From Clostridia bacterium (GTDB taxonomy: Bacteria > Bacillota > Clostridia > UMGS1883), in contig JAZNTQ010000074.1 in assembly GCA_045591865.1 (NCBI GenBank), positions 1 to 61,220 of the forward strand: a DNA stretch of 61,220 nt, in the 5' to 3' direction. Made by a program: the position numbers and the translations under genes. The notes under the pieces were generated by a model. The model was given only the letters and a program-made list of their open reading frames with translations. It was not told the origin of the DNA and made no database searches. Shown here piece by piece: positions 46,798 through 61,220 of this stretch. How positions within the stretch are numbered: position 1 is the first letter of the stretch; every line of letters begins with the position of its first letter.

Positions 46798-47043
46798 TTG
46801 TTTAAAAATAAATCAAAATCGGGTAAAAATAATATTTGCGGCGAGAAGATTTGTTTTTTAAGGAAAAATCAAATCCCTAAAATGTCGCAGCGTATTCTGG
46901 CCGAGAAGCTTCAACTATGCGGTATTGACGTTGATAAAAACGCAATTCAGCGAATTGAAAGCGGAGAGCGGTTTGTCACTGATATTGAGATAAAAGTGAT
47001 GGCAGAAATTTTTGGTATATCAGTTGACGAACTTCTCGGGTAA
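46798..47043 (+). CDS. XRE-family helix-turn-helix transcriptional regulator
   Basis: MSQRILAEKLQLCGIDVDKNAIQRIESGERFVTDIE. TTG start 5 nt after AAGGTGA. Confidence 0.75.
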   Translation: MFKNKSKSGKNNICGEKICFLRKNQIPKMSQRILAEKLQLCGIDVDKNAIQRIESGERFVTDIEIKVMAEIFGISVDELLG

Positions 47044-47108: not shown

Positions 47109-49139
47109 TTATGCTTTTGAACTTTCGATAACCTTCTGTGCGATAGCTTCGGGAACTTCCTCGTATCTTTCAAAGGTAAATGTAAACTTACCTCTCGCAC
47201 GTGTCATACTGCGAAGGTCTGTCGCATATTTACACATTTCAGCTTCGGGAACTTCTGCTACTACTTCGCCAAGTCCGTCACCGATAGGATTCATACCGAG
47301 TATTCTGCCGCGGCGCTTATTGATATCGCCAATGATGTCTCCCATCAAATCCTCTGGCATAACAACCTCTAGATGGCCGATAGGTTCAAGAAGAACGGGG
47401 CTTGCCTGTGTGAGGCCATCCTTATATGCAATACCTGCGGCAACCTTGAATGCCATTTCAGAGGAGTCTACGGGGTGATAAGAACCATCCACAAGAACTG
47501 CTTTGAGTCCTACTACGGGGTATCCTGCAAGAACACCTTTTGTGATAGATTCCTGAAGTCCCTTTTCAACTGCGGGGAAGTAGTTCTTGGGAACTGCACC
47601 GCCGACAATCTTTTCTTCAAAGATAAGCTCTGTGCCGTCGTGACGTGAAAATTCAATCCAGACATCACCAAACTGACCGTGACCGCCTGACTGCTTCTTG
47701 TGTCTTCCCTGAACTTTAACACTCTTGCGGATAGTCTCACGGTATGCAATCTTGGGAGCCTTAAGCTCTACGCCTACGCCGAACTTTGTCTTTAACTTGC
47801 TTGTGATAACGTCAAGATGAAGCTCGCCTGTACCGGAGATTGTAAGCTCCTTTGTTTCTTTATTGTTTTTAACCTTGAATGTGGGGTCTTCCTCGCGAAG
47901 CTTTGAAAGACCTGCACTGATTTTTTCTTCATCGCCCTTCGCCTGGGGAATGATTGCCATTGTGATAGCAGGAGCAGGGAACTGAATTCCTTCAAGTTCT
48001 TCTGCGCCCTGTTTTGCAAGGGTGTCGCCTGTAAGTGTTACACCAAGCTTTGTAGCCGCACCGATGTCGCCTGCGCGAAGCTCGGGAACTTCAATCTGCT
48101 TTTTACCGCGGAGAACATAGAGCTTGCCGATTCTTTCACTTTCGCCCTTATTAACATTATAAACTGTTGAATCAGCCTTGAGCGTTCCGCCGTAAACACG
48201 GATAAGAGAAATCTTGCCGTAAGAGTCTGCAAGGGTTTTGAATACAACTGCGCTTAAGGGTGCCGCTGAATCTGCTTTTTCTGCCTCGACCGGAGAGGGA
48301 AGGTACTTAAGCATAGCGTCCATAAGAGAGCGTACTGCAAAGGTCTTTCCTGTGCAGTAGCCGCCGTAAACGGGAACTACCTGACCCTGCTTAACACTGC
48401 CCTTAAGAACTGCGCGCATTTCTTCGTCGGTAATAACATCGCCTGCGAAATATCTTTCAAGAAGCTCGTCGCTTGTAAGAGCAACTGCCTCAATAAGTGC
48501 ATCGTGATACTTATCGAAGGATGCTTTCATATTTTCGGGAATCGGGATTTCAGTTTCAACATCATTTTCAACCTTATACGCCTTACCGCTTACGATGTTG
48601 ACATAACCTGTCATTTCCTTGCCTTCCTTAATCGGAATTCTGAAAACAGCGGCGCTTGCACCGAATTTTTCGTGAATTTGTGCTACTACCTTGTCAAAAT
48701 CTGCACTTTCATCATCCATACAGTTGATGAACATCATACGAGCCATGCCGCGCTCGGTAGCATATTTCCATGCGTTCTCGGTACCTACCTTAACGCCGCT
48801 TTTCGCATTGATAACAATAAGTGCGCTTTCTGCAGCGCGGATACCTCCCATAGCCTCGCCAACAAAGTCAAAGTAACCGGGAGTATCAATGAGGTTAAGC
48901 TTTGAATCCGGTATTTTGGGAGTGTGCCAGATACAGGGCGCCATTGAAAGATTAACTGAAATTTTTCTTTTTACTTCCTCTGCGTCGTAGTCACTTACTG
49001 TAGTTCCGTCTGCAATTTTTCCGAATCTGTCGGATGCGCCGGCTTTATGTAATATCGCTTCAACAAGCGATGTCTTTCCTGCTCCGCCGTGTCCTAATAC
49101 TACTACATTTCTGATGTTTTCTCCACTAAATACATTCAT
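47109..49139 (-). CDS. elongation factor G family GTPase (stand-alone EF-G paralogue)
   Basis: IRNVVVLGHGGAGKTSLVEAIL G1, DTPGYFDF G3, EF-G domains II-V, 676 aa. Not in a str operon context. Confidence 0.85.
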   Translation of the reverse strand: MNVFSGENIRNVVVLGHGGAGKTSLVEAILHKAGASDRFGKIADGTTVSDYDAEEVKRKISVNLSMAPCIWHTPKIPDSKLNLIDTPGYFDFVGEAMGGIRAAESALIVINAKSGVKVGTENAWKYATERGMARMMFINCMDDESADFDKVVAQIHEKFGASAAVFRIPIKEGKEMTGYVNIVSGKAYKVENDVETEIPIPENMKASFDKYHDALIEAVALTSDELLERYFAGDVITDEEMRAVLKGSVKQGQVVPVYGGYCTGKTFAVRSLMDAMLKYLPSPVEAEKADSAAPLSAVVFKTLADSYGKISLIRVYGGTLKADSTVYNVNKGESERIGKLYVLRGKKQIEVPELRAGDIGAATKLGVTLTGDTLAKQGAEELEGIQFPAPAITMAIIPQAKGDEEKISAGLSKLREEDPTFKVKNNKETKELTISGTGELHLDVITSKLKTKFGVGVELKAPKIAYRETIRKSVKVQGRHKKQSGGHGQFGDVWIEFSRHDGTELIFEEKIVGGAVPKNYFPAVEKGLQESITKGVLAGYPVVGLKAVLVDGSYHPVDSSEMAFKVAAGIAYKDGLTQASPVLLEPIGHLEVVMPEDLMGDIIGDINKRRGRILGMNPIGDGLGEVVAEVPEAEMCKYATDLRSMTRARGKFTFTFERYEEVPEAIAQKVIESSKA

Positions 49140-49331: not shown

Positions 49332-49371
49332 ACATAAAACAGCGTCGGAGAAGGTTCCCCGACGCCGTTTT
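49332..49371 (-). terminator. intrinsic terminator after the endolysin gene (prophage left edge)
   Basis: Read on the minus strand: GGCGTCGGGGAACCTTCTCCGACGCTG hairpin followed by TTTTAT. Confidence 0.7.
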
Positions 49372-50109
49372 TTACAGTGTGCCTCTTATGTAGTTTGCCA
49401 TCTTTTTGCAAAGGTAGTAGACATTTTTATCGCTCTGGCATTTCTCAATCCAGAGTTTTCCATCCGTCACTATGCCTTTGTTCATAAGCTCCCATATAAT
49501 GTCATTTATTTTGTCGATACTTTTAAGAGTCTCCTTCTCTTCACCTATAAGCGGAAGAAGATTTTTCTCAAATGCTTCTCTCGTGTTCCCCCCGAAAAAG
49601 TCCGTCCCGGGGCAGGTTTTACACGATTTTGCAGGAACATAATCGCAAAGTTCTTTACCTCCGCTTGTCCACCAGGAATGGTATGTTACAGCGTTTTTTG
49701 CATCAAGGCCAAACTTTTTTATAAGACACTTTGTTGCACGGATAATTGCTTCTCTCTGCGCACTTGTCATACTATCTGCCCCAGCATCAAAATTACCAAG
49801 ACACTCTATTGATATCGCTCCCGTATTCGCACCCTTTATTCCTGCAGGCACCATTTCAATACTGCGCCCCGACACGATAACTCCATCGGGGAAAATTGTA
49901 AAATGCTGGGCAATATCACTCCATCCGTTAGTTTTTATGTGATAGCCTCGCATGGCACTCTGAAGCGCAATATGATTCTCCCCCGTAAACTGCTTATAAC
50001 TGGGAGAATACGTGTGGTGAAGCTGAATACGTTTTATCATTCGCAGAACGCTCAATGAGTTTATGTATTTCTCAAATTGCTGTATGCTGAAAGTTCTAAA
50101 ATCACTCAT
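49372..50109 (-). CDS. phage endolysin, N-acetylmuramoyl-L-alanine amidase (Amidase_2/PGRP type)
   Basis: IQLHHTYSPSY...GWSDIAQHFTIFPDG...GANTGAISIECLGNFD. ATG 50109 with GGAGGGA RBS. Confidence 0.85.
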   Translation of the reverse strand: MSDFRTFSIQQFEKYINSLSVLRMIKRIQLHHTYSPSYKQFTGENHIALQSAMRGYHIKTNGWSDIAQHFTIFPDGVIVSGRSIEMVPAGIKGANTGAISIECLGNFDAGADSMTSAQREAIIRATKCLIKKFGLDAKNAVTYHSWWTSGGKELCDYVPAKSCKTCPGTDFFGGNTREAFEKNLLPLIGEEKETLKSIDKINDIIWELMNKGIVTDGKLWIEKCQSDKNVYYLCKKMANYIRGTL

Positions 50110-50151
50110 ATTAAATCCCTCCGTTATTATCTTATTCACGCCTTTTTTGGG

Positions 50152-50592
50152 TTATTCCCTGCCGCTTTCATTTTCGGGAATTTCCTTACCGAGTGCTTCA
50201 AGCGCCTTTTTAAGAAAATCTGGGTATTTTATTCCCATAAGGGCAAGATTTTCGATAATGCTGAGTCCCTCATTTCCCAAAAAGAAGAATATTGTGGCGT
50301 TTCTTATGTAATGAGTGCCGCTTATCTCGTCCACCCTTACCGCAAGCGCCACCAGAAGAAGCACACACACTTTTTTTACTATTCCCTTGTAGCCTACCTG
50401 ACTGGATGCGCCGCCGTTTTTTGTTTTCTGCGACTTGTGAAAGACGAGCGCCACTGTCATTCCCGTTATGTAGTCAACCGCCATAAACATAACCAGCGCC
50501 TTAAGAAAAGAGTCCCAGCCTCCGAATGTTTCTGTCAGAACGCTCCCCAACCCTGCAAGTGCTATTAAAATCACGTTTTTGATGTTTGCCAT
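50152..50592 (-). CDS. phage holin (phi LC3 / TcdE-like holin family)
   Basis: MANIKNVILIALAGLG...MFMAVDYITGM...GNEGLSIIENLALMG. ATG 50592 with AAAGGAGGTG RBS. Confidence 0.8.
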   Translation of the reverse strand: MANIKNVILIALAGLGSVLTETFGGWDSFLKALVMFMAVDYITGMTVALVFHKSQKTKNGGASSQVGYKGIVKKVCVLLLVALAVRVDEISGTHYIRNATIFFFLGNEGLSIIENLALMGIKYPDFLKKALEALGKEIPENESGRE

Positions 50593-50773
50593 ATTTACAC
50601 CTCCTTTGCTTGGAGACAGGTCGTTTTTGTTACGCCTGCGGCTTACAAAATCTCTCACTACGGCTCGGTCACGACTCGGCTCTGACAGTCCACAGGACTG
50701 TCATTCACTACCTCGTCGCCGCTCCGCTACCCCGTCCCCTATTTTCTTGTCATTCTGAGTAAAGCGAAGAACC
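50593..50773. repeat. GC-rich repeat-like non-coding spacer inside the prophage
   Basis: 21-nt perfect palindrome TGACAGTCC-ACA-GGACTGTCA (50683-50703). CCCCGTCCCC core (50730-50739). GTCATTCTGAGTAAAGCGAAGAACC (50749-50773). Confidence 0.45.
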
Positions 50774-52081
50774 TCACTCCACCCTCTTATATTCACCGCC
50801 TATTTTTGCGGTAATCTCTGTGTTAATCTCATAAATCGTTGTCCCTCTGAATGTGGGAAGAGAGGGAAGATCTATTTCTTCCTCCCTTACAGAGTCTTCG
50901 TAAACTGCAGTAAGGGGTGTGCCCTCATCATTCCACGCTTTAAGCTGTGCTTCCCACTCCTCTATTTCTGGAACTGTCTGTGCAGGGGTTACACAGAAAT
51001 AGCTTCCGGCCTGTAAAGCGGCACCTATAATTCTCTCTCCCTCGGCGCGCCTTATGTTGGCTGCTATATTCTCCCATGTATAGGAGACATAGCGGTTATT
51101 CAGCAGGTGGCATACATTTGAATCAAGACCTTTAACGCTCCCGCACGAGCAGTACAATCTGTAATCCTGCCTGTACCAGATTTCATCGCCTGTAAATACT
51201 TTGAAATTGACATTTCTTATGATTCTTCCGTTTTCAAAGTCGATAAAATCCTCTTTATCCCCAATTCTGCGAAGGGGCTCTTCAAGATAAATGTCAATGC
51301 TTTGAGGCTCTTTGTATTCCTCATATTCCGTATCTGTATCTCCATACTCAATTTGAATATTTTCTATTTTTACAGTGTTGGAATTAAGGGCGAACGCGGG
51401 GTAATAAATCTTCGGTGCTTCAATGTCGGGAATGGTAAATTTACACGAAATACGTTTTGTTTCATTCAGTTTTACCGTTACGGCTTTTAAAGTATATTTA
51501 GCGTTGCCGCCGTCCCTCGAATAGAGCAGTATGCTCGGGACATAGTTGTCATCCTGCCTTAATTCAAGCAGGGTTACATCTGCTGATACAGTAACAATAT
51601 CTCCGCTCTTCAATTCAGGGCAAATTCCGCTTGCGGCAGTATATCCCGGGCGAAACCATCCTCTGGCATACGCCCCTGTAAGCGCATTCTCCGCTATATT
51701 TCCCTGCACGATTGCTCCGTTTTTAAAGACATCAATGGTATTGCCGTTGGCGATTGCTGAATCTATAAACTTAAAAAGATTTTTTCCTCTTGCAGTTACA
51801 CCGATTTTGTACTTTCCGCTGTGCTCTTCTTCTGTTACAAGGCCTCCCACACTTTTAACCTCTATCGGGCTTTCGGGAGAGGGTGCGCCATCTTGTACAC
51901 TATTGCCTGTTATCTGTGCGCTATGAAGCTTATCGTTATAGCAATTTTCAAGCGTTATCCCGCCTTCGCCTTCAAATGCCTCTTTGGTATATCCTGCAAT
52001 TCTCGTACTTCCCTTGTAAAGCTCGGAAGGGTGGAAATCGCCTTTTACAATCTGCGCTCTGTTTTCATTTACATAAATCAT
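50774..52081 (-). CDS. putative phage tail fibre / receptor-binding protein
   Basis: 435 aa. Position between the fibre and holin genes. ITGNSVQDGAPSPESPIEVKSVG motif as I recall from Firmicute phage fibre proteins. No firm family call. Confidence 0.5.
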   Translation of the reverse strand: MIYVNENRAQIVKGDFHPSELYKGSTRIAGYTKEAFEGEGGITLENCYNDKLHSAQITGNSVQDGAPSPESPIEVKSVGGLVTEEEHSGKYKIGVTARGKNLFKFIDSAIANGNTIDVFKNGAIVQGNIAENALTGAYARGWFRPGYTAASGICPELKSGDIVTVSADVTLLELRQDDNYVPSILLYSRDGGNAKYTLKAVTVKLNETKRISCKFTIPDIEAPKIYYPAFALNSNTVKIENIQIEYGDTDTEYEEYKEPQSIDIYLEEPLRRIGDKEDFIDFENGRIIRNVNFKVFTGDEIWYRQDYRLYCSCGSVKGLDSNVCHLLNNRYVSYTWENIAANIRRAEGERIIGAALQAGSYFCVTPAQTVPEIEEWEAQLKAWNDEGTPLTAVYEDSVREEEIDLPSLPTFRGTTIYEINTEITAKIGGEYKRVE

Positions 52082-52093
52082 ATTTCCACCGCC

Positions 52094-53611
<1,518 letters not shown>

Positions 53612-53628: not shown

Positions 53629-53667
53629 TAAAAAAACAACCCCCCAGTATAGAATACCAGGGGGTTT
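53629..53667 (-). terminator. intrinsic terminator of the nfnAB cassette
   Basis: Read on the minus strand: AACCCCCTGGTATTCTATACTGGGGGGTT hairpin followed by GTTTTTTT, ending about 10 nt before the RBS of the next phage gene. Confidence 0.75.
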
Positions 53668-53697
53668 GCCGAAAGTCGTTACACTTTTGTGCTTTTT

Positions 53698-55092
53698 TTA
53701 ATTTTTTTTGTTTTTGATATATTCATCAATAGCCGCTGCCGCTTTTTTGCCTGCTCCCATAGCGAGAATTACGGTAGCCGCGCCCGTTACGGCGTCGCCT
53801 CCTGCAAAGACACCCTCGCGAGAGGTTCTTCCGTCCTCACCGTCAGTCACGATACAGCCGTGCCTGTTGGTTTCAAGGCCTTTGGTTGTCTTATGAATAA
53901 GCGGATTTGGACTTGTGCCGATTGACATAATGACAGTATCAAGCTCTATTACAAACTCACTGTCTTCCACGGTGACAGGTCTTCTTCTGCCGCTTTCATC
54001 AGGCTCGCCAAGCTCCATTTTTACGCACTTTATTCCCGTGACATTTCCTTTTTCGTCGCCAAGAATTTCGACGGGATTGGTGAGAGTCTTAAAGATAATA
54101 CCCTCTTCCTCTGCATGCTCTATTTCTTCTTTTCGTGCAGGAAGCTCTTCCATACCTCTGCGATAGACTATGTAAACCTCGTCTGCACCGAGTCTCATAG
54201 CGCTTCTTGCCGCGTCCATAGCAACATTTCCACCGCCGACAACTGCTACTCGGTTGCTCTTTTTGATAGGAGTTTTACTGTCGTTTTGATATGCTTTCAT
54301 AAGATTTATACGGGTAAGGTACTCATTGGCACTGTAAACACCATTGAGCGCTTCTCCCTTGATATTCATAAACCTCGGAAGTCCTGCACCTCCTGCAATA
54401 TAGACCGCCTCATAACCTTCCTCAAAAAGCTCGTCTACAGTAATGGTCTTTCCGATAACTATATTAGTCTTTATCAAAACTCCCATATCCTCGAGCTTTT
54501 TAATTTCGTCACGCACGATATCTTTGGGAAGACGGAATTCGGGAATTCCGTAAACAAGCACTCCGCCTGCGGTGTGAAGAGCCTCAAAAACTGTTACCTC
54601 ATAGCCCATTTTTGCAAGGTCGCCTGCGGCGGTAAGTCCTGAAGGACCTGCACCGACAACTGCTACCTTAAGACCATTTGACACGCACTTTTCCGCCTTT
54701 TTTGCATAATGCTCTCTGTAATAGTCGGCAACAAATCGCTCAAGTCTGCCGATGGCAACACTCTCGCCCTTGATAGCGCGAACACAGACGCTTTCACACT
54801 GGCTTTCCTGCGGGCACACTCTTCCGCATACCGCAGGAAGCGCACTTTCTCTTGAGATAATCTCGTATGCTCCCTTAATATCTTCGTTTGCAAGCCTTTC
54901 GATGAAGGCAGGAATGTCGATTGCTACGGGGCATTTGCTCTGGCAGGGCTTCGTCTTGCAGTTAAGGCAACGCTTTGCCTCGTTTATTGCCATTTCGTAG
55001 GTGTAGCCCGTCGCAACCTCCTTAAAGTTTCTGCTTCTCACTTTGGGGTCCTGCGAAGGCATGGGACACTTTTTAATATCCATATTAGGCAT
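53698..55092 (-). CDS. nfnB: NADPH-dependent glutamate-synthase-small-chain-like Fe-S flavoprotein (NfnB / SudA / homotetrameric GltA type)
   Basis: N-terminal cysteine clusters CLNCKTKPCQSKCP and CGRVCPQESQCESVC; two dinucleotide folds VAVVGAGPSG and VAVVGGGNVAMD; 464 aa. Confidence 0.85.
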   Translation of the reverse strand: MPNMDIKKCPMPSQDPKVRSRNFKEVATGYTYEMAINEAKRCLNCKTKPCQSKCPVAIDIPAFIERLANEDIKGAYEIISRESALPAVCGRVCPQESQCESVCVRAIKGESVAIGRLERFVADYYREHYAKKAEKCVSNGLKVAVVGAGPSGLTAAGDLAKMGYEVTVFEALHTAGGVLVYGIPEFRLPKDIVRDEIKKLEDMGVLIKTNIVIGKTITVDELFEEGYEAVYIAGGAGLPRFMNIKGEALNGVYSANEYLTRINLMKAYQNDSKTPIKKSNRVAVVGGGNVAMDAARSAMRLGADEVYIVYRRGMEELPARKEEIEHAEEEGIIFKTLTNPVEILGDEKGNVTGIKCVKMELGEPDESGRRRPVTVEDSEFVIELDTVIMSIGTSPNPLIHKTTKGLETNRHGCIVTDGEDGRTSREGVFAGGDAVTGAATVILAMGAGKKAAAAIDEYIKNKKN

Positions 55093-55093
55093 A

Positions 55094-55936
55094 TCAAAGC
55101 ACCTCCTTATTTAAGAGGTTGCAATTATCCTCGCGTCTTTTCTGCTCGAAGTCTTTGTAAATTCCGCTTCTGGAAATCGCCTCGTCAAAATCAACCTGGT
55201 GTCCGTCAAAATCAGGACCGTCAACACAGGCAAACTTTGTTTCTCCGCCTACGGTGAGTCGGCATCCGCCGCACATTCCCGTACCATCTACCATAATGGG
55301 ATTCATTGAAACGGTGGTCTTAATGCCATACTTTTTTGTAAGAAGGCTCACAAACTTCATCATAACAAGAGGTCCTATTGCGATAACCTCGTCGTACTCA
55401 TTTCCGTCTTTGATAAGCTTTTCAAGAGCCTCTGTTACTAGTCCCTTCTCGCCATAGCTTCCGTCATCGGTCATTATTTTAAGAGTCTGGCTTACCTCTT
55501 TAAATTCGTCCTCTAAAATAACGAGGTCCTTATTTCTGAAACCTGTAACGCTATGCACAACAGCCCCGTTTTGATGGAGTTTCTTCGCGACGGGATATGC
55601 TATCGCGCAACCCACGCCGCCTCCCACAACGCAAACCTTTTTAAGATTGTCAAGGTCACTGGGAGTGCCGAGAGGTCCTACAAAATCGCAGATATAATCA
55701 CCCTTTGAAAGAGAATTAAGCTCCATAGTAGCTTCTCCTACAATCTGGAAAATGATTGTAACTGTTCCCTTTTCGCGGTCGTAGTCTGCAATTGTGAGCG
55801 GAACGCGCTCGCTGTCTTCTTTTGTTCTGAAAATTATAAACTGCCCTGCCTCTGCCTTTCTGGCAACGAGGGGTGCTTCTATTACCATCTTTGTGACAGT
55901 GGGGTTCAGCACTGTTTTTTCAGTAATTCTGTACAT
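55094..55936 (-). CDS. nfnA: ferredoxin-NADP+ reductase-type FAD/[2Fe-2S] subunit (NfnA / SudB)
   Basis: MYRITEKTVLNP...; C-terminal MVDGTGMCGGCR...CVDGP cluster motif. ATG 55936 after AGGGTG preferred over the track's GTG at 55945. Confidence 0.85.
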   Translation of the reverse strand: MYRITEKTVLNPTVTKMVIEAPLVARKAEAGQFIIFRTKEDSERVPLTIADYDREKGTVTIIFQIVGEATMELNSLSKGDYICDFVGPLGTPSDLDNLKKVCVVGGGVGCAIAYPVAKKLHQNGAVVHSVTGFRNKDLVILEDEFKEVSQTLKIMTDDGSYGEKGLVTEALEKLIKDGNEYDEVIAIGPLVMMKFVSLLTKKYGIKTTVSMNPIMVDGTGMCGGCRLTVGGETKFACVDGPDFDGHQVDFDEAISRSGIYKDFEQKRREDNCNLLNKEVL

Positions 55937-55967
55937 TTTTTTCACCCTTTAACTTGAATTAAAGTTT

Positions 55968-55996
55968 ATTATACTCTCCTTTTTTGGCTTTTGCAA
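55968..55996 (-). promoter_or_regulatory. consensus sigma-A promoter of the nfnAB cassette
   Basis: Read on the minus strand: TTGCAA (55996-55991), 17-nt spacer, TATAAT (55973-55968), about 30 nt upstream of the nfnA ATG. Confidence 0.65.
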
Positions 55997-56039
55997 GTTT
56001 TTTGGGGTAATATAGGGGTTGTTTTTTGTAAATTATTAG

Positions 56040-57101
56040 TTATTTGTTGTACATTTTATACTGTTGTGCCTTTTTGTAGTCGTAGTCAATGGTATGAGTG
56101 CCTGCGGGGAGCCCGAGTATCTTTGCACTTTCCTCGTCAAGATAACCCAGCTTTTCCCACTTTCGGAGTGCAGTTTCTATTTTTTCCTGCTCGTTTTCAT
56201 ACTTTTGCTGCTCCCATTTGTTGCTGTTTTCAAGAGCCTCGTTTTCAAGCTTCTTCATAAGGTACTCGTATTCAAGCTCGCTTTCCCTATCGGTCTTCTC
56301 GTAATCTCTCTCATCAGTGAATTTTTTATATTCAAATTCCCTGTCCTTATTGTACTGGTTAAGACTGTCGAGATAACGCGCATACTCATTTTCTTCCAGA
56401 TCGGCAAGAATTTTTACGTTATCCTCTAAAAGACCGATTTCGTCTAAATACCTTTCGTAGGCATCCTGATAAAGCTCGGGAATTTTATCGGTGAGCTTCT
56501 CATTATAGTAATTTCTGCTCTGCGCTGCCGCACCTGCGGCGTAGCTTGAGATAACGCCTCCTGTATTAGCCGCAAGCTCTCCCAAAAGGTCCTCCATGGC
56601 ACGGTTTCCCTCACGGATATACTGCTTTCGGTAGTATTCGTAGAGGTCATCCTCATAGGGATTATAGCTGAATTTTTTTACATTCTCGAGCTTTTCGAGC
56701 AATCTCTCAAGCTGCGAGCTGTAATTTCCCACATATTCAGGAGCATCCTTTTTATAGGAGAAGTTTCCGCTCCCCATGATATATTTTATTGCCTCTTCAT
56801 ACACGTCATCTGCGGCGTATTTTGTAAGCCCTATTGTGCCCTTTGCCTTGTTGACACGCTTTTGAAGTGTACCCGCTACAGCGCTTTTTGAGGCACCGCT
56901 CTCCATCTGACTACGCAAAACATCAGAATAGTCCGTCTTGTCGAGCCATCCGCTGTAGTGATTTGTTTTTTTGTAGTTTAAGTTTTCACCGTCTATCTTT
57001 TCGTTTCGGCTTTTTTCGTAAAGCGCAGCGTTTTCATAGTCGCCCCTCTTTACAGCCTCATCTATTTTTTCCTGATAGTCGATTTCCTTGTTATAGCTCA
57101 T
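56040..57101 (-). CDS. phage hypothetical protein, charged/coiled-coil rich (353 aa)
   Basis: MSYNKEIDYQEKIDEAVKRGDYEN...; ATG 57101 with GGGGAGG RBS. The track start 57218 is an extension. Confidence 0.5.
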   Translation of the reverse strand: MSYNKEIDYQEKIDEAVKRGDYENAALYEKSRNEKIDGENLNYKKTNHYSGWLDKTDYSDVLRSQMESGASKSAVAGTLQKRVNKAKGTIGLTKYAADDVYEEAIKYIMGSGNFSYKKDAPEYVGNYSSQLERLLEKLENVKKFSYNPYEDDLYEYYRKQYIREGNRAMEDLLGELAANTGGVISSYAAGAAAQSRNYYNEKLTDKIPELYQDAYERYLDEIGLLEDNVKILADLEENEYARYLDSLNQYNKDREFEYKKFTDERDYEKTDRESELEYEYLMKKLENEALENSNKWEQQKYENEQEKIETALRKWEKLGYLDEESAKILGLPAGTHTIDYDYKKAQQYKMYNK

Positions 57102-57279
57102 TGTCCTCCCCCTTGTAAAATTTTGTTTTTGTGATGTCCAGCTCGATAACATTACTGCTGTCAAGATGCGACAGTATGTATTCAAGCTCATCGTGACTTG
57201 TACGCAGATAGTTTTCAATCATTCTTATCTGCTCATCAGCGCTTTTACCTGCAAGGTCTCCAAGCTTCGTAAGAATCAC
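57091..57279 (-). CDS. small phage hypothetical protein (62 aa)
   Basis: GTG start 5 nt after GAGGTGG. 11-nt overlap with the downstream gene. Confidence 0.45.
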   Translation of the reverse strand: MILTKLGDLAGKSADEQIRMIENYLRTSHDELEYILSHLDSSNVIELDITKTKFYKGEDNEL

Positions 57280-57289
57280 TTATACCACC

Positions 57290-59068
57290 TCAATTTACGG
57301 AAAATTCTCTGACAATCGAGTTTATTACGCTCTTGCCTTTACCCGAAAGTCTTATCTGCGCCTCGTGGCATCCTTTTAATGAGCAAGGGATATTTATGTA
57401 CTTCTTTTCGTCTCCATAGGAAGTATTTATGCATCTGAAAATGCCATCGTCTCCCTTTATTTCCGTGCGGATATACGCACCCCTCCAAAGCTCGGCACAG
57501 ATATGGATGCGGCTATAGTTTTTCGTCTTGTAATAGCCTTCGTCAAACGGACGAAGCGTCATACTCCACTCTACGTCCTCATCGGTTTCCCTTCTTATTA
57601 TGCTTATACCCTGCTCGTTTAAGCGGTACACGTCCTCGCCGAAACACAGATAATCAATTGTGTTTTCTATGCCCGTTTTACTCCACAGATTTTTCTCGCT
57701 GTCCCAGATAAATTCCTCACGGGAAGTTTCTGTATCTGCCGTGAGGTAATAGTTTCTTCCGTCGCTTGTACCGACTGCTTTTTTGAGGGAAATATCACCG
57801 AGCTTGTCGGAAATTCTCTGTGGCGAGCCTCCATAATAAATATAGACGCCCCCGTTTCCCTTGTAGACAAGCTTTCCGCCTACATTCGCGATGCTTTTCT
57901 CATCGTCCTTCAAAATTCCGCCCTTAAAACTTTCCGAAAGCTGAAAATTCGACGGACGCGTGCCAAAAAGTCTGTAGCAGACATCTTCTTTAAAAAAGAG
58001 GCACCCGTTTCCGTAGACGGTGCAGGCAGTGAAATCTCCTGCTGAGTTGCTTTCTACGGTAAAACTGTCGGTTGAGAGATTCTGATACTTGAAAAAGTTT
58101 GTTGCATCTCCGAGTGCGGACGCGTATATGGTATTTTTTTCGCATCCCCAAAGCCTGTTTTCATAGGTGCACACGCAGGTAAAATCAGGAATTTTTCTCT
58201 GGATTGTAATATTCCCGTTGTCATTTCCTGCGGTAAATGTTCCCTCGGCAAAGGTGAGCGAGGTGTCGGTTTTAGATATAATAGTGGCACTTTTATTGTT
58301 ATCCTTTATATCAGTACAACCCTCTATCTCGACAACATCTCCCTCTCGAAAGCCCCCAAAAATATTTTCCATAAGGTTTTCCACGGTTACCTTTTCACTT
58401 GTGACGCTGTACTCTTCAGTATCTTCCAAATACAAGGCACTCTGAATAATTAAGTACTCGTTTTTATTGCATCCTTCGTTGTAGATATCTCCCTCCGAAA
58501 GCTCTGAAGGATTTTTGAGTGAGGCTTTTCCAAGCACAACCTTACCCTCTGACACCGTGGCAGCGTCAAAGATTACAAGCTTCATATCCCTTGGAAAGCT
58601 CTGCTTATCAATTCTTCGGCTTTCCTTTATATGCACCGCGGGGACGCTGATTGTATCGCTCGTAAAGGTTGTAGTTACACCCTGCGTGCAGGCAAGGGCA
58701 CGAAGGTCTCCAACCTCTCCCGCCTGTGTGTCATAATACACTTTATCGGGAAAGACAAGGATTTTCTTCCCGAGAACTGCAAGCTGCTTTTCGCCAGAGG
58801 TGAGAGTGGCGACCTTTTTGCGGTCATAGTAGAGTGCATCATTTGTGGCGACGCACTCCTTGTCGGCAAAAACTGCCGCTGATGGAGACTGGCACTCAAA
58901 GACCGTCTCACTCTTAAAGCGCTGCGTGATTGCAGGAAACATTCTGTGAGAAATTGCATAAGCATCCTCAAGCTCGCCCTCCTGAAAATCCTTCGTGAGA
59001 TTTATTCCTCCAAAGGTCACTATGCTTCTTTTGTAGCGGTTTTCTTTTTTTATGACTGGAAGATGCAT
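57290..59068 (-). CDS. large phage structural protein (tail/nozzle-like; family not recognised with confidence)
   Basis: 592 aa from MHLPVIKKENRYKRSIVTFGGINLT. Repeated beta-strand-rich segments. Position is in the tail module. Confidence 0.45.
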   Translation of the reverse strand: MHLPVIKKENRYKRSIVTFGGINLTKDFQEGELEDAYAISHRMFPAITQRFKSETVFECQSPSAAVFADKECVATNDALYYDRKKVATLTSGEKQLAVLGKKILVFPDKVYYDTQAGEVGDLRALACTQGVTTTFTSDTISVPAVHIKESRRIDKQSFPRDMKLVIFDAATVSEGKVVLGKASLKNPSELSEGDIYNEGCNKNEYLIIQSALYLEDTEEYSVTSEKVTVENLMENIFGGFREGDVVEIEGCTDIKDNNKSATIISKTDTSLTFAEGTFTAGNDNGNITIQRKIPDFTCVCTYENRLWGCEKNTIYASALGDATNFFKYQNLSTDSFTVESNSAGDFTACTVYGNGCLFFKEDVCYRLFGTRPSNFQLSESFKGGILKDDEKSIANVGGKLVYKGNGGVYIYYGGSPQRISDKLGDISLKKAVGTSDGRNYYLTADTETSREEFIWDSEKNLWSKTGIENTIDYLCFGEDVYRLNEQGISIIRRETDEDVEWSMTLRPFDEGYYKTKNYSRIHICAELWRGAYIRTEIKGDDGIFRCINTSYGDEKKYINIPCSLKGCHEAQIRLSGKGKSVINSIVREFSVN

Positions 59069-59072
59069 CCTC

Positions 59073-59450
59073 TCACCCCGCAATCGTGTAATCTGCCGTG
59101 GGCGGCATATTGTTTCTTATATAGTTTTTGCGAAACTCACTGTAGGCCTCTTCAAAAAGAATTGCGCTTGCGCTGTAGTTTGCCATTTCACCGCTGAAAA
59201 AATCACTCATAGCGATAATATAAAGTGTGTAAATATTATCGTAGGGCGCTTTTACCACAAGCTCCTTTTCCCCGTCTTCGGGAAGCTTATAGGGAGTGAA
59301 ACCTTCTTTGTGCATCGTTTCACGCATTATCTTCCCGTCAAGCTCACCAAGCCATCTTACCTTGATTGAGTCGGGGATTGTGTCGGGATGGAGCTTTAGC
59401 GCTTCTTCTATAACAAAGTTTATCGTCACAGCGATGCACACTCCTTCCAC
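59073..59450 (-). CDS. phage hypothetical protein (about 118-125 aa)
   Basis: ORF translationally coupled to its neighbours. Alternative GTG at 59429 overlaps the upstream TGA (GTGA). Confidence 0.45.
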   Translation of the reverse strand: MEGVCIAVTINFVIEEALKLHPDTIPDSIKVRWLGELDGKIMRETMHKEGFTPYKLPEDGEKELVVKAPYDNIYTLYIIAMSDFFSGEMANYSASAILFEEAYSEFRKNYIRNNMPPTADYTIAG

Positions 59451-60538
59451 TCTCCGTCCAAAAATACATATACGCCTCTTTTTACGCTTGCCATTTTTAC
59501 TGCCGCAACATCGCTTTTAACGGCGTTCTCCACCTCAAGCGAAGAGGGCAGAACGATTGCGGGACGGTACTTTTTATAAGTTTGCGGGGAAACAAGTGCG
59601 AAGCCTCCCACAGAGGTTACAATATACACCTTGTCACTTGTGGTGCTTCTTGTGAAATAGTCCTCATTATTTGTGATATATCTTGCTATACGGTTCTCGA
59701 TAGTTTTGAAATACTCAATATCTTCAAATTCTTCTTTTGAAAGCAAAAAGCAGTGTCTTGAGTCAATAGCATTAAGAGATATGCAGACAAGATTATTTTT
59801 TACTTCCTTTGAAAATTTTCCCCTGAAACCGACCTCAAGGATAAAATCAATATCGCTCCGTGAATAGGTTTCTCTTCCGAAATAATCAAAACATACTCCC
59901 AGCGAGCAGAGGTTTTTTCTCACAAGAGTGACGGTGTTTTTAGAATGATAATCTTTTGCGGCAATGATATACTCAGCTGCGTTTCCATGTTCCTCTATAA
60001 GCATTGTGCTTCCTACTTCGCAGTCGCCGAGTTTTTTTGAATTTGGATCACTGGTGATAATACATATATCTCCCTCTGTAGCCTCTTCGGGAAGAGATGT
60101 GCGGATACTGATATTTCGCATCACCGCTTCTTTGCCATCTGCCTCACTTGCTCTTAAAGCACCTGTGAGAGCTCCTCCCTCTTTTTTAAGGCATGAGGAG
60201 AAAAGAGTATCGGCATATTTATAAATATCCTCTTTCTTTCCCTCGGTATCGTAGATGACAGAGAGCATATCGCCGAGCGCGTCGCGTCCGTCACGTCCGC
60301 GCGGTATGTAAAAAGAAAGCACGGGGTTCTGGGCATCAGTATTATCAAGCTCAACGTGTGCCTCTTCGCTCGGAGAAAGAGTCTGCGTTTCTCCTATGGA
60401 GAGGACGGGAGTAATTCCGTCTTTACCTCTTTCTCCCGTATCCCCCTTTTCGCCCTTTGCACCTGTATCGCCCTTTGCACCTGTGTCGCCTTTATCACCT
60501 TTGTCGCCTTTTATGCGGCCAAGATTAAAGCTTGCCAT
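59426..60538 (-). CDS. phage collagen-repeat fibre-like protein
   Basis: N-terminal MASFNLGRIKGDKGDKGDTGAKGDTGAKGEKGDTGERGKDG (10 G-X-Y triplets), then a globular C-terminal region. Confidence 0.65.
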   Translation of the reverse strand: MASFNLGRIKGDKGDKGDTGAKGDTGAKGEKGDTGERGKDGITPVLSIGETQTLSPSEEAHVELDNTDAQNPVLSFYIPRGRDGRDALGDMLSVIYDTEGKKEDIYKYADTLFSSCLKKEGGALTGALRASEADGKEAVMRNISIRTSLPEEATEGDICIITSDPNSKKLGDCEVGSTMLIEEHGNAAEYIIAAKDYHSKNTVTLVRKNLCSLGVCFDYFGRETYSRSDIDFILEVGFRGKFSKEVKNNLVCISLNAIDSRHCFLLSKEEFEDIEYFKTIENRIARYITNNEDYFTRSTTSDKVYIVTSVGGFALVSPQTYKKYRPAIVLPSSLEVENAVKSDVAAVKMASVKRGVYVFLDGEWKECASL

Positions 60539-60553: not shown

Positions 60554-60838
60554 TTATATATTTCTCTGGGCAGCTTCGGCAAAAAACTCGTCGGACTTAT
60601 TATCCATTAGTCTTGCAGTACGGATATCCTGACGCATAGACTGCATAATCACGTCGGCAAACTTCTTCTTGATTTTAACCTTTCTGCCTCGCGCAATCAC
60701 ACAGCTTTCACCGTTGACCGCCACAAAAACGTTGTCCTTGTAATCCTTGTTGTCGCGGAAAAGCTCGATTTCCACAAGGGTATTTTCATCAAAGTTCTTC
60801 GTCACGGGTTTTTCATTAGTTTTCTTTGTAGTTGCCAT
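60554..60838 (-). CDS. small phage protein following the capsid gene (94 aa)
   Basis: MATTKKTNEKPVTKNFDENT...; ATG 60838 with AAAGGAGGA RBS. Confidence 0.45.
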   Translation of the reverse strand: MATTKKTNEKPVTKNFDENTLVEIELFRDNKDYKDNVFVAVNGESCVIARGRKVKIKKKFADVIMQSMRQDIRTARLMDNKSDEFFAEAAQRNI

Positions 60839-60862: not shown

Positions 60863-60891
60863 CCTCTCAGTCAGTTTTGCTGACTGAGAGG
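60863..60891 (-). other. 12-bp perfect stem-loop immediately downstream of the capsid gene
   Basis: CCTCTCAGTCAG-loop-CTGACTGAGAGG. No U-run on the coding (minus) strand, so more likely an mRNA-stability or attenuating hairpin than a full terminator. Confidence 0.5.
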
Positions 60892-60933: not shown

Positions 60934-61220
60934 TTACATTCCAAAGGTACAAGCTGTTTCGATTCTTACCATATAAGGCTCAACGAGTCTTACTGCTGCC
61001 TTTGTTGCCTTCCAGCCTGCGCTTGCACGCTGATTGAGAGGGTCAGAGGTTCCTGCAGAACCGAGCTGCTTGATGATATGAGTAAGACCGCCGCCTGCAA
61101 TTTCCGTTGTACCATAGGCGTTGTCGCCGATGATAAGAGTTGCGTAAACGTCGCAGCCTTCAAGACCTGCTTCACCCGGGAAAATAACATCTCCGTCTGA
61201 AACTGCGTTTGCAAGAGCGT
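60934..61220 (-). CDS. major capsid protein, N4-gp56/HK97-like family (C-terminal 94 aa; gene continues off the right edge)
   Basis: Not in ORF track. My translation is ...GDNAYGTTEIAGGGLTHIIKQLGSAGTSDPLNQRASAGWKATKAAVRLVEPYMVRIETACTFGM*. The GS.G..DPLNQR...GWK ending matches my recollection of that family. The listed ORF 60990..61214 is another frame and looks spurious. Confidence 0.65.
   Translation of the reverse strand, partial: ALANAVSDGDVIFPGEAGLEGCDVYATLIIGDNAYGTTEIAGGGLTHIIKQLGSAGTSDPLNQRASAGWKATKAAVRLVEPYMVRIETACTFGM

Follow-up and report, generated by a model that had tools for sequence, protein, structure and literature searches.

An nfnAB operon at the junction between the structural and fibre/lysis genes of a candidate gene-transfer-agent-like cluster in uncultured gut Clostridia

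The subject of this analysis is nfnAB, a two-gene redox operon that lies among phage-type genes in an uncultured member of the Clostridia. The stretch of DNA that was analysed, called the window here, is the entire 61,220-bp contig of a metagenome-assembled genome (MAG). According to the list of open reading frames (ORFs), all genes between position 49,372 and the end of the contig are encoded on the minus strand. In the order of transcription these are a capsid gene, which is truncated at the contig end because the window is the whole contig, a small protein gene (p93), a fibre gene, and the genes p125, p592, p62 and p353. Next come nfnA and nfnB, and after them two further fibre genes (fib1 and fib2), a holin gene and an endolysin gene (Table 1). 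The nfnAB cassette is found at this same junction in all 14 cluster lineages. Where other loci and contigs must be told apart, they are referred to by L numbers.

The reading frames of nfnA and nfnB are 1 nt apart, and the two genes are bona fide NfnA/NfnB homologues. NfnA matches PRK06222 at 411 bits together with DHODB_Fe-S_bind (NCBIfam/Pfam). NfnB matches TIGR01316 gltA at 600 bits together with Fer4_20 and Pyr_redox_2. Among proteins of known structure, NfnA aligns over its full length with the small subunit of Pyrococcus furiosus NfnI (5JCA_S, 311 bits) and scores 267 bits with Thermotoga maritima 4YLF_A, compared with only 93 bits for PyrK. Likewise, NfnB aligns over its full length with T. 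maritima NfnB (4YLF_B, 544 bits) and with 5JCA_L (517 bits), compared with only 287 bits for GltD. The [2Fe-2S] motif of NfnA, DGTGMCGGCR...FACVDGP, and the two [4Fe-4S] cysteine clusters of NfnB, CLNC...C..KCP and CGRVCPQESQCESVC, coincide with their counterparts in the T. maritima and P. furiosus proteins, as read from the alignment and not in 3D. Domain families, full-length sequence alignments and Fe-S motifs all agree with the NfnA/NfnB architecture recognised in an initial annotation of this DNA. The window proteins share the two-subunit architecture and the Fe-S ligand motifs of T. maritima NfnAB (4YLF) and P. furiosus NfnI (5JCA) and are not notably different from them; the genomic location alone is unusual. 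The cassette most probably represents a functional nfnAB operon, coding for an NADH-dependent reduced-ferredoxin:NADP+ oxidoreductase, and the host's own housekeeping copy of it.

The initial annotation also described the cassette as a self-contained transcription unit of promoter, two genes and terminator, and each of these parts was found in its place. A promoter scan finds TTGCAA-17-TATAAT just upstream of nfnA. A terminator scan finds a 13-pair hairpin with a T-run at 53666-53638 on the minus strand, and the region folds at -25.6 kcal/mol (z = -3.6). It is followed by the ribosome-binding site (RBS) of the next phage gene. A lone promoter match of this kind is not above background, as 26 matches at 10 of 12 positions were found against 18.4 ± 4.8 expected. 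Because a single match is within background, the real evidence is conservation at the same two places in 14 loci. TTGnnn-17-TATAAT is present 5' of nfnA in 14 of 14 orthologous loci, and a hairpin with a T-run is present 3' of nfnB in all of them, with stem sequences that are completely different between lineages. The persistence of both signals despite the different stems therefore indicates selection both on a promoter of the constitutive type and on a strong terminator.

The RBS of the fibre gene lies about 10-25 nt past the nfnB terminator in the 14 orthologous loci. No promoter was recognised between the nfnAB terminator and this RBS, and there is no room for one there. The 21-nt block GTGTAACGACTTTCGGCAAAC is identical in five lineages (the window, L036, L038, L045 and L092), even though these have different terminator stems and different NfnB sequences. 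The remaining lineages lack the block, which resembles the spacer of the repressor-controlled main promoter in L120 (TTGACATTCGGCAAAC). One possible fibre-gene promoter, placed inside the terminator and suggested by TATACT/TATGAT in the loop and by the 21-nt block, has a poor -35 element and is not called by the scan, and the block is lineage-specific.

The arrangement is not peculiar to one contig. Relatives of NfnB that a protein search recovered, 96% and 89% identical, are on contigs with the gene order p592-p62-p353-nfnA-nfnB-fibre-fibre-holin-amidase. A wider locus scan with NfnB used one genome per GTDB species, and its results refer to the best 80 of 386 loci, taken from incomplete MAGs. 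The cluster layout surrounds nfnAB in 12 of these 80, each from a different GTDB species representative, with NfnB 78-88% identical. The order by tblastn is portal-scaffold-capsid-p93-fibre-p125-p592-p62-p353-nfnA-nfnB-fib1-(fib2)-holin-amidase. The layout is complete in long loci; in short loci it was followed as far as the DNA runs. The remaining 68 loci (NfnB 69-79% identical) have nfnAB without cluster genes beside it, one of them (L047) with a weak holin match 6.7 kb upstream. Each of the best 80 loci is from a different genome; none of the 12 cluster genomes has a second nfnB locus among them. The JGI metagenome contig L203 and contigs from ENA/Logan show the same layout. Since it recurs in 12 GTDB representatives and in several metagenome contigs, the layout is not an assembly artefact, and the reported position of the cassette between phage structural genes and fibre/lysis genes is reproduced in independent assemblies. 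No relative of this clade carries this nfnAB without phage genes on both sides, the pattern that had been named as speaking against a phage context.

The left part of the cluster is outside the window, and long contigs covering it were reached with the TerL of a relative in IMG/VR. Overlaps of L120 with L038 (99.6%) and of L121 with L046 (100%) give two complete copies. From repressor to amidase the cluster measures 18.5 kb, nfnAB included. At its head is a divergent repressor with HTH_3 and Peptidase_S24 domains (phrog_4; weak LexA match). Around the main promoter, TTGACA/TTGACT-17-TATACT, the sequence ACTTACG(C/T)A occurs three or four times (L120 9160-9290; L121 9190-9320), and a palindrome CTTACG-N5-CGTAAG is located just past the -10 element. 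The ACTTACG(C/T)A copies are likely operators of the divergent S24 repressor. Downstream of the main promoter are three small ORFs, TerL, a protein of 165-184 aa that weakly matches TerS, and a portal of the P22/SU10 type. These are followed by a Prp-like protease in some lineages, a scaffold, a capsid of the N4-gp56 family (TIGR04387), and the genes of the window. Genes for an integrase, an excisionase, replication or recombination are missing from the two complete copies, and a search of both cluster ends gave no attachment-site (att)-type direct repeat of at least 11 nt. GC content is 0.44-0.46 in host, cluster and cassette alike.

The left neighbours of the cluster are either gltX/PGA_cap/GH2 or rimP-nusA-infB-rbfA-truB-ribF. 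Its right neighbours are EF-G-pgk-tpi-gpmI, ABC transporter genes, or rpsT-coaE-polA. The same rimP-nusA-infB-rbfA-truB-ribF genes lie downstream of nfnAB in two distant Clostridia (L100 9157-20800; L103 3497-14900). In the sister-clade locus L081 (4283-6510), truB is directly 3' of nfnB. In the cluster-bearing L121 (1-8400), the rimP-nusA-infB operon abuts the repressor end of the cluster. The nusA-infB/truB neighbourhood may thus be a trace of the original location of nfnAB. No simple path of inversion or translocation from such a home could be derived, and the sister-clade contexts are otherwise unrelated.

True phages related to the cluster are numerous: hundreds of relatives that measure 36-45 kb came up when IMG/VR was scanned with profiles. 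Their gene order is TerL-portal-Prp-scaffold-capsid-p93-fib1-like-...-holin-lysin-p118-p592-(p62)-p353, followed by an ORF of 2700-2900 aa. Examples for this giant ORF are found in L005 (13685-21809) and L031 (6446-15271); that of L031 was scanned and has no PHROG match. Among cultured phages, the Bacillus megaterium podophages Page and Pony come closest, with a capsid that is 35% identical; capsid identity with the IMG/VR gut phages reaches 74-78%. Page, Pony and the IMG/VR phages share with the cluster a homologous capsid, portal, TerL and p592/p353 module. Unlike the cluster, they are full-size, have the giant gene after the p353 homologue, place the fibre and lysis genes upstream of p118, and lack nfnAB, which is absent from all of about 110 true-phage relatives examined. 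In the cluster, by comparison, the giant gene and every early gene have been lost, the fibre/lysis block comes after p353, and nfnAB is situated at that junction.

Four close IMG/VR entries (L001, L002, L126 and L127) hold only the block upstream of nfnAB. L001, L126 and L127 run from the small ORFs after the repressor precisely to the stop codon of p353. That three entries end at this codon indicates that provirus trimming cut them at genes taken for host genes. Provirus callers thus cut the cluster at nfnAB, an artefact which in IMG/VR hides the fibre/lysis half and the cassette. A naive reading of the locus would misreport nfnAB as a phage auxiliary metabolic gene (AMG).

A scan of metagenome contigs with a p353 profile revealed three states of the junction. 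In the first, nfnAB lies between p353 and the fibre gene (L203). In the second, fib1 follows p353 directly across a 58-nt spacer that contains a hairpin (L200). In the third, seen in the L202/L127 lineage (GC 0.49), p353 is followed by pepD, rpsB, tsf and secDF, and no fibre or lysis genes occur within 8 kb after it. The p592 neighbour-joining trees place L202 near the base. The p353/fibre junction is a modular breakpoint of this element family. Its history would include a single ancient insertion of nfnAB at that breakpoint.

Phylogeny and substitution rates tie the parts of the cluster together. TerL is 80-98% identical among the best 120 database matches. In a tree of concatenated NfnA and NfnB, the 14 embedded copies form one clade, nested in ordinary Oscillospirales-type NfnAB. 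Ranked by the identity of portal, capsid, p592 or fib1, the lineages come in the same order, as they do in the p592 tree, and the upstream block, the cassette and the downstream block have the same branching order. In the L040, L042 and L044 comparison, the ratio of nonsynonymous to synonymous divergence (dN/dS) is 0.01-0.24 for every cluster gene. Among these three, synonymous divergence (dS) lies between 0.20 and 0.71 in the cluster genes and, overlapping with this, between 0.28 and 0.61 in nfnAB; for L040/L042 the dS of the cluster genes also overlaps that of three host genes in the flanks (0.38-0.47). L046 and L058 share their right flank despite flank proteins that are only 50-64% identical. 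The gene fib2 behaves differently. It is 37% identical between L040 (12996-13739) and L042 (12994-13791), compared with 89-99% for the other cluster genes and the host flanks, and 45-58% identical between the window and its closest relatives. This contrast suggests that fib2 is a working receptor-binding protein gene, cassette-swapped within an otherwise vertically inherited cluster. Taken together, the signatures point to a chromosomally inherited element under selection, and not to a decaying remnant or a freely moving phage.

The nearest known parallel is FpGTA, the gene transfer agent (GTA) of Faecalibacterium prausnitzii. It forms tail-less or short-tailed particles of about 40 nm that carry about 8.5 kb of random host DNA (Nat Commun 2026, PMC12946183). 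The genes of its operon I code for TerS, TerL, portal, Prp, an N4-gp56 capsid, a “tail nozzle” and an abundant TolA-annotated protein. Operon II lies at a distance of 125 kb and comprises genes for a BppU-like fibre, an upper fibre, a receptor-binding protein (RBP), an RBP anchor, a holin and an endolysin; the proteins are RCH50844-50852 and RCH48794-48800 (PMC12946183). GTA-like packaging was also seen in other Oscillospiraceae and in Christensenellaceae, where the genes were not found (PMC12946183).

The present cluster shares with FpGTA the host order, the gut habitat and the parts list, including scaffold and N4-gp56 (TIGR04387) capsid. Both do without replication and integration genes, and both are conserved across a genus-level group. 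The boundary between operons I and II of FpGTA is the equivalent of the junction that holds nfnAB here. The FpGTA operons are 125 kb apart, whereas here the two blocks are separated by just the 2.4-kb nfnAB unit. A divergent S24 repressor with operators heads the present cluster, and none is reported for FpGTA. Also unlike FpGTA, the present cluster has an extra TerS-like gene between TerL and portal. By analogy, common descent with FpGTA is a strong lead. Two traits expected of a GTA-like element are observed: packaging, head, short-tail/fibre and lysis genes occur without replication or integration genes, and there is vertical inheritance with purifying selection, with a caveat from the dS of the window and L038 that is given below.

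Other systems offer partial likenesses. PBSX-type defective prophages of Bacillus are likewise chromosomally fixed, repressor-controlled, lineage-conserved clusters, with terminase, head, tail/fibre and holin-lysin genes and without replication or integration functions. PBSX is myovirus-like and not known to be related in sequence to the present cluster, and no housekeeping operon is known to lie inside a PBSX late operon. RcGTA-type elements of Alphaproteobacteria share vertical inheritance, purifying selection on structural genes and the lack of self-replication, and their genes may be dispersed over several loci. They differ in being siphovirus-like, from another phylum, unrelated in sequence, and regulated by host two-component and quorum systems instead of an S24 repressor. 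With phage morons and AMGs the cassette has in common an autonomous promoter-gene-terminator unit between late genes and a metabolic function. Unlike them, its carrier is not a replication-competent phage, and the cassette is fixed in all lineages, absent from true phages, host-like in composition, and apparently the host's only copy.

The interpretation that best fits these observations is that a host housekeeping nfnAB operon sits at the operon I/II junction of a domesticated, GTA-like particle cluster, which is passed on as part of the chromosome within an uncultured gut clade of Clostridia/Oscillospirales; its probability is put at roughly 0.65. The lack of integrase and att sites, the purifying selection, the flank-like dS, the nfnAB-free true phages and the nesting of the embedded genes among host-type NfnAB together argue that the cassette is the host's operon and not phage cargo. 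The cluster is therefore best filed as a GTA-like or defective-prophage element with an electron-bifurcation operon nested at an inter-operon junction, and not as a phage with an AMG.

Several observations weigh against this interpretation. Between the window and L038, dS is 1.1-1.2 for nfnA and nfnB and 1.1-1.9 for cluster genes, against 0.60-0.66 for the EF-G/pgk flank. This excess could come from allelic exchange or re-acquisition of the whole unit of cluster and nfnAB, or from codon bias if the flank genes are highly expressed. The host genes next to the cluster vary from lineage to lineage, and a relative with an 88% identical EF-G has no cluster upstream of it. The dS excess, the varied neighbours and this cluster-less relative imply that rearrangement or recombinational replacement of the whole unit occurred; nfnAB travels with the cluster in each case of rearrangement. 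Furthermore, L200, which has no nfnAB, falls inside the nfnAB-bearing clade in the p592 neighbour-joining trees, a placement that, if correct, would require later loss or recombination. The statement that the clade has only one nfnAB copy rests on the 80 best loci described above. The likeness to FpGTA consists of gene order, kinds of parts and the capsid family TIGR04387. Finally, the fibre/lysis block sits behind a strong terminator, and no promoter belonging to the block itself was recognised, so that its transcription has to rely on read-through or antitermination, or on an unrecognised promoter that overlaps the terminator.

Some of these points feed competing explanations. That the junction is a chimera of phage and host DNA made in assembly or binning might be suspected from a metagenome contig ending inside the capsid gene and from one relative in which a contig break at the fibre divides the cluster. 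The same junctions, with co-varying sequence, recur in over 15 independent assemblies, which were made in different studies with different assemblers, and the idea is effectively refuted. It is also very improbable that two unrelated prophage remnants have come to flank a chromosomal nfnAB by chance. Because true phages place their fibre and lysis genes between capsid and p118, and not after p353, the block after nfnAB is not in the ancestral phage position, which this explanation would account for, as it would the presence of nfnAB near rimP-nusA-infB in L100, L103 and the cluster-bearing L121. It fares badly with the shared history of the parts. Both blocks and nfnAB have one identity ranking and one tree, and purifying selection acts on both blocks; separate origins of the blocks had been listed beforehand as a result that would overturn the initial annotation. 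Homologues of the fib1 N-terminus, the holin and the lysin occur in the same phage family, L200 has fib1 directly after p353, and the two blocks together make up one complete particle-plus-lysis gene set, as in FpGTA.

The initial annotation framed the locus as a prophage with nfnAB as a moron or AMG. An ordinary temperate prophage would package and spread the cassette and thereby boost the NADPH/ferredoxin balance of its lysogen. The autonomous promoter and terminator inside a late operon fit this account, as do the CI/LexA-like repressor with operators, the different chromosomal places in different lineages, the one pair in which cluster and nfnAB are more diverged than their flanks, and the hypervariable fibre. 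It is nevertheless unlikely. Integrase, excisionase, replication and recombination genes and att repeats are all missing, and the 18.5 kb lie between housekeeping genes at both ends. An AMG is expected to be patchy in phages while the host keeps its own copy; here the cassette is in all 14 cluster lineages with a single origin, none of the examined phage relatives has it, and no second host nfnAB was seen among the best 80 loci. Every genome found with an NfnB of this clade has it inside the cluster, dS in the L040 group equals that of the host flank, and composition is fully host-like. A further possibility accepts a host operon and gives it a role in the cluster. As the only nfnAB, it might be a metabolic “hostage”, a selectable anchor that makes loss of the cluster costly, or it might be a gate that couples fibre/lysis expression to read-through or antitermination of the redox operon. 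The constant junction, the conserved promoter and terminator in all 14 lineages, the lack of room for a promoter before the fibre RBS, the apparent absence of a second copy, and the 21-nt block, invariant in five lineages and reminiscent of the main-promoter spacer, all lean this way. Such a role is doubtful all the same: relatives persist without the cassette (contiguous in L200, split in L202 and FpGTA), the 21-nt block is absent from other lineages, and selection on nfnAB itself explains the conservation equally well.

The perfect 13-bp inverted repeat that was reported to bracket the cassette (53631-53643 and 56015-56027) is present and non-random, as 3000 shuffles of the two spacers yielded no repeat of this length. 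Only the window lineage has it in perfect form; it falls to 8 nt in the next relative and 6-10 nt in others, and outside the window lineage and its closest relative the complementarity is at chance level. An A-run/C-run motif is common to five lineages of the window's group. The suggestion that came with the repeat was that an ancestral hairpin had been split by the insertion. In favour of it, L200 has a hairpin at the uninterrupted junction; against it, the orphan arm is significant only in the window lineage, and a split hairpin was rejected on this ground as a general insertion scar. NfnB identity falls to 78% within the clade, so the insertion must be old and a perfectly preserved scar is unlikely. 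A split terminator as the origin of the orphan arm is thus possible but unproven, and the case for it is weak.

The remaining features of the region are listed in Table 1. The capsid fragment of the window is 92% identical to the C-terminus of the L038 capsid, and its full-length orthologue from L120 has matches to TIGR04387 (305 bits) and phrog_1357. The stem-loop after the capsid gene may, on the coding strand, serve mRNA stabilisation or processing; on the plus strand it could terminate antisense transcription. For p592, a profile search against PDB sequences gave no match, and a single-sequence AlphaFold model (pLDDT 34) was unusable. The 505-aa fib1 matches collagen repeat and phrog_5073 tail fibre, and has a weak profile match to the upper fibre of phage 80alpha (6V8I, E = 3e-4); its earlier description as BppU-like was not recovered by Pfam. 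PHROG, Pfam and NCBIfam gave no match for p353, p62, fib2 or the three small ORFs, and Rfam none over 49-61 kb. Megablast of the 12-kb region against 50,697 GenBank phages gave no match. Exact-sequence look-ups of the window's p592 and NfnB also gave no match, though NfnB is present in the protein collection. Just beyond the EF-G paralogue, an 81-aa ORF of the XRE helix-turn-helix type is found at 46798-47043 on the plus strand, in an AT-rich stretch (GC 0.35 at 46-47 kb).

Table 1. Coordinates of the cluster genes and associated signals in the window, from the contig end to the first host gene.
Feature	Position	Strand	Remarks
Major capsid protein (N4-gp56 type), C-terminal fragment	60934-61220	-	truncated by contig end; stop codon read
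Stem-loop, perfect 13-bp	60863-60891	.	between capsid stop (60934) and next gene start (60838); T-run on + strand only
Small conserved 94-aa protein (p93/p114, phrog_15239)	60554-60838	-	72-87% identical across 12 related clusters
370-aa collagen-repeat fibre	59426-60538	-	orthologues carry DUF6273
p125 (phrog_12105), conserved virion-module protein	59073-59450	-	
p592, large conserved virion protein	57290-59068	-	phrog_511 “internal virion protein”; position of the FpGTA “tail nozzle”
p62, small protein	57091-57279	-	
p353, Tyr/Glu/Lys-rich	56040-57101	-	closes head/packaging operon (“operon I”); positional equivalent of the abundant “TolA”-annotated FpGTA particle protein
Orphan arm AAAAAACAACCCC (minus-strand reading)	56015-56027	.	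complementary to 3' arm and T-run of nfnB terminator
nfnAB promoter TTGCAA-17-TATAAT	55968-55996	-	motif scan
nfnA, 280-aa FNR-like FAD/[2Fe-2S] small subunit	55094-55936	-	ATG start
nfnB, 464-aa GltD-like FAD / 2x[4Fe-4S] large subunit	53698-55092	-	
21-nt block GTGTAACGACTTTCGGCAAAC	53664-53684	-	between nfnB stop and terminator
nfnAB intrinsic terminator	53629-53666	-	13-bp stem, 3-nt loop, T-run; ends about 10 nt short of fibre-gene RBS
fib1, 505-aa collagen-repeat fibre	52094-53611	-	opens fibre/lysis block (“operon II”); 47-88% identical across lineages
fib2, 435-aa hypervariable distal fibre	50774-52081	-	no Pfam/NCBIfam/PHROG match
Holin (Phage_holin_4_1)	50152-50595	-	listed ORF spans 50152-50658
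Endolysin (N-acetylmuramoyl-L-alanine amidase, Amidase_2)	49372-50139	-	last cluster gene
Hairpin and T-run	49335-49368	-	3' of endolysin gene; marks cluster end
EF-G paralogue, first host gene	47109-49139		flank common to window, L038 and L125

On the reading of a host operon inside a domesticated GTA-like cluster, the locus would work as follows. In the uninduced cell, nfnAB would be transcribed constitutively, and NfnAB would be the cell's enzyme for balancing NADPH, ferredoxin and NADH. The terminator would halt this transcription about 10 nt before the fibre-holin-endolysin genes and so insulate the lethal lysis module. Derepression, probably through RecA-stimulated autocleavage of the S24 repressor, would switch on the long upstream operon. 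Judging from the gene content and the analogy with FpGTA, small tailed heads would then be built, DNA packaged and cells lysed, and the particles would act like a GTA.

For the biology of these bacteria, the arrangement poses a regulatory puzzle, namely how fibre and lysis genes are expressed behind the strong terminator of a constitutive housekeeping operon. If the cassette were in fact a hostage or a gate, the series from L200 through this clade to L202 and FpGTA would record how a GTA genome became interleaved with, and controlled by, host operons. If the locus is a GTA-like cluster with a host operon at its junction, the podovirus-like GTA of Faecalibacterium would be extended to another uncultured gut clade, and a simple SOS-type repressor circuit would be added to this kind of element. 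The series of contiguous, host-operon-interrupted and split junctions would then make the fragmentation of a GTA “genome” directly comparable.

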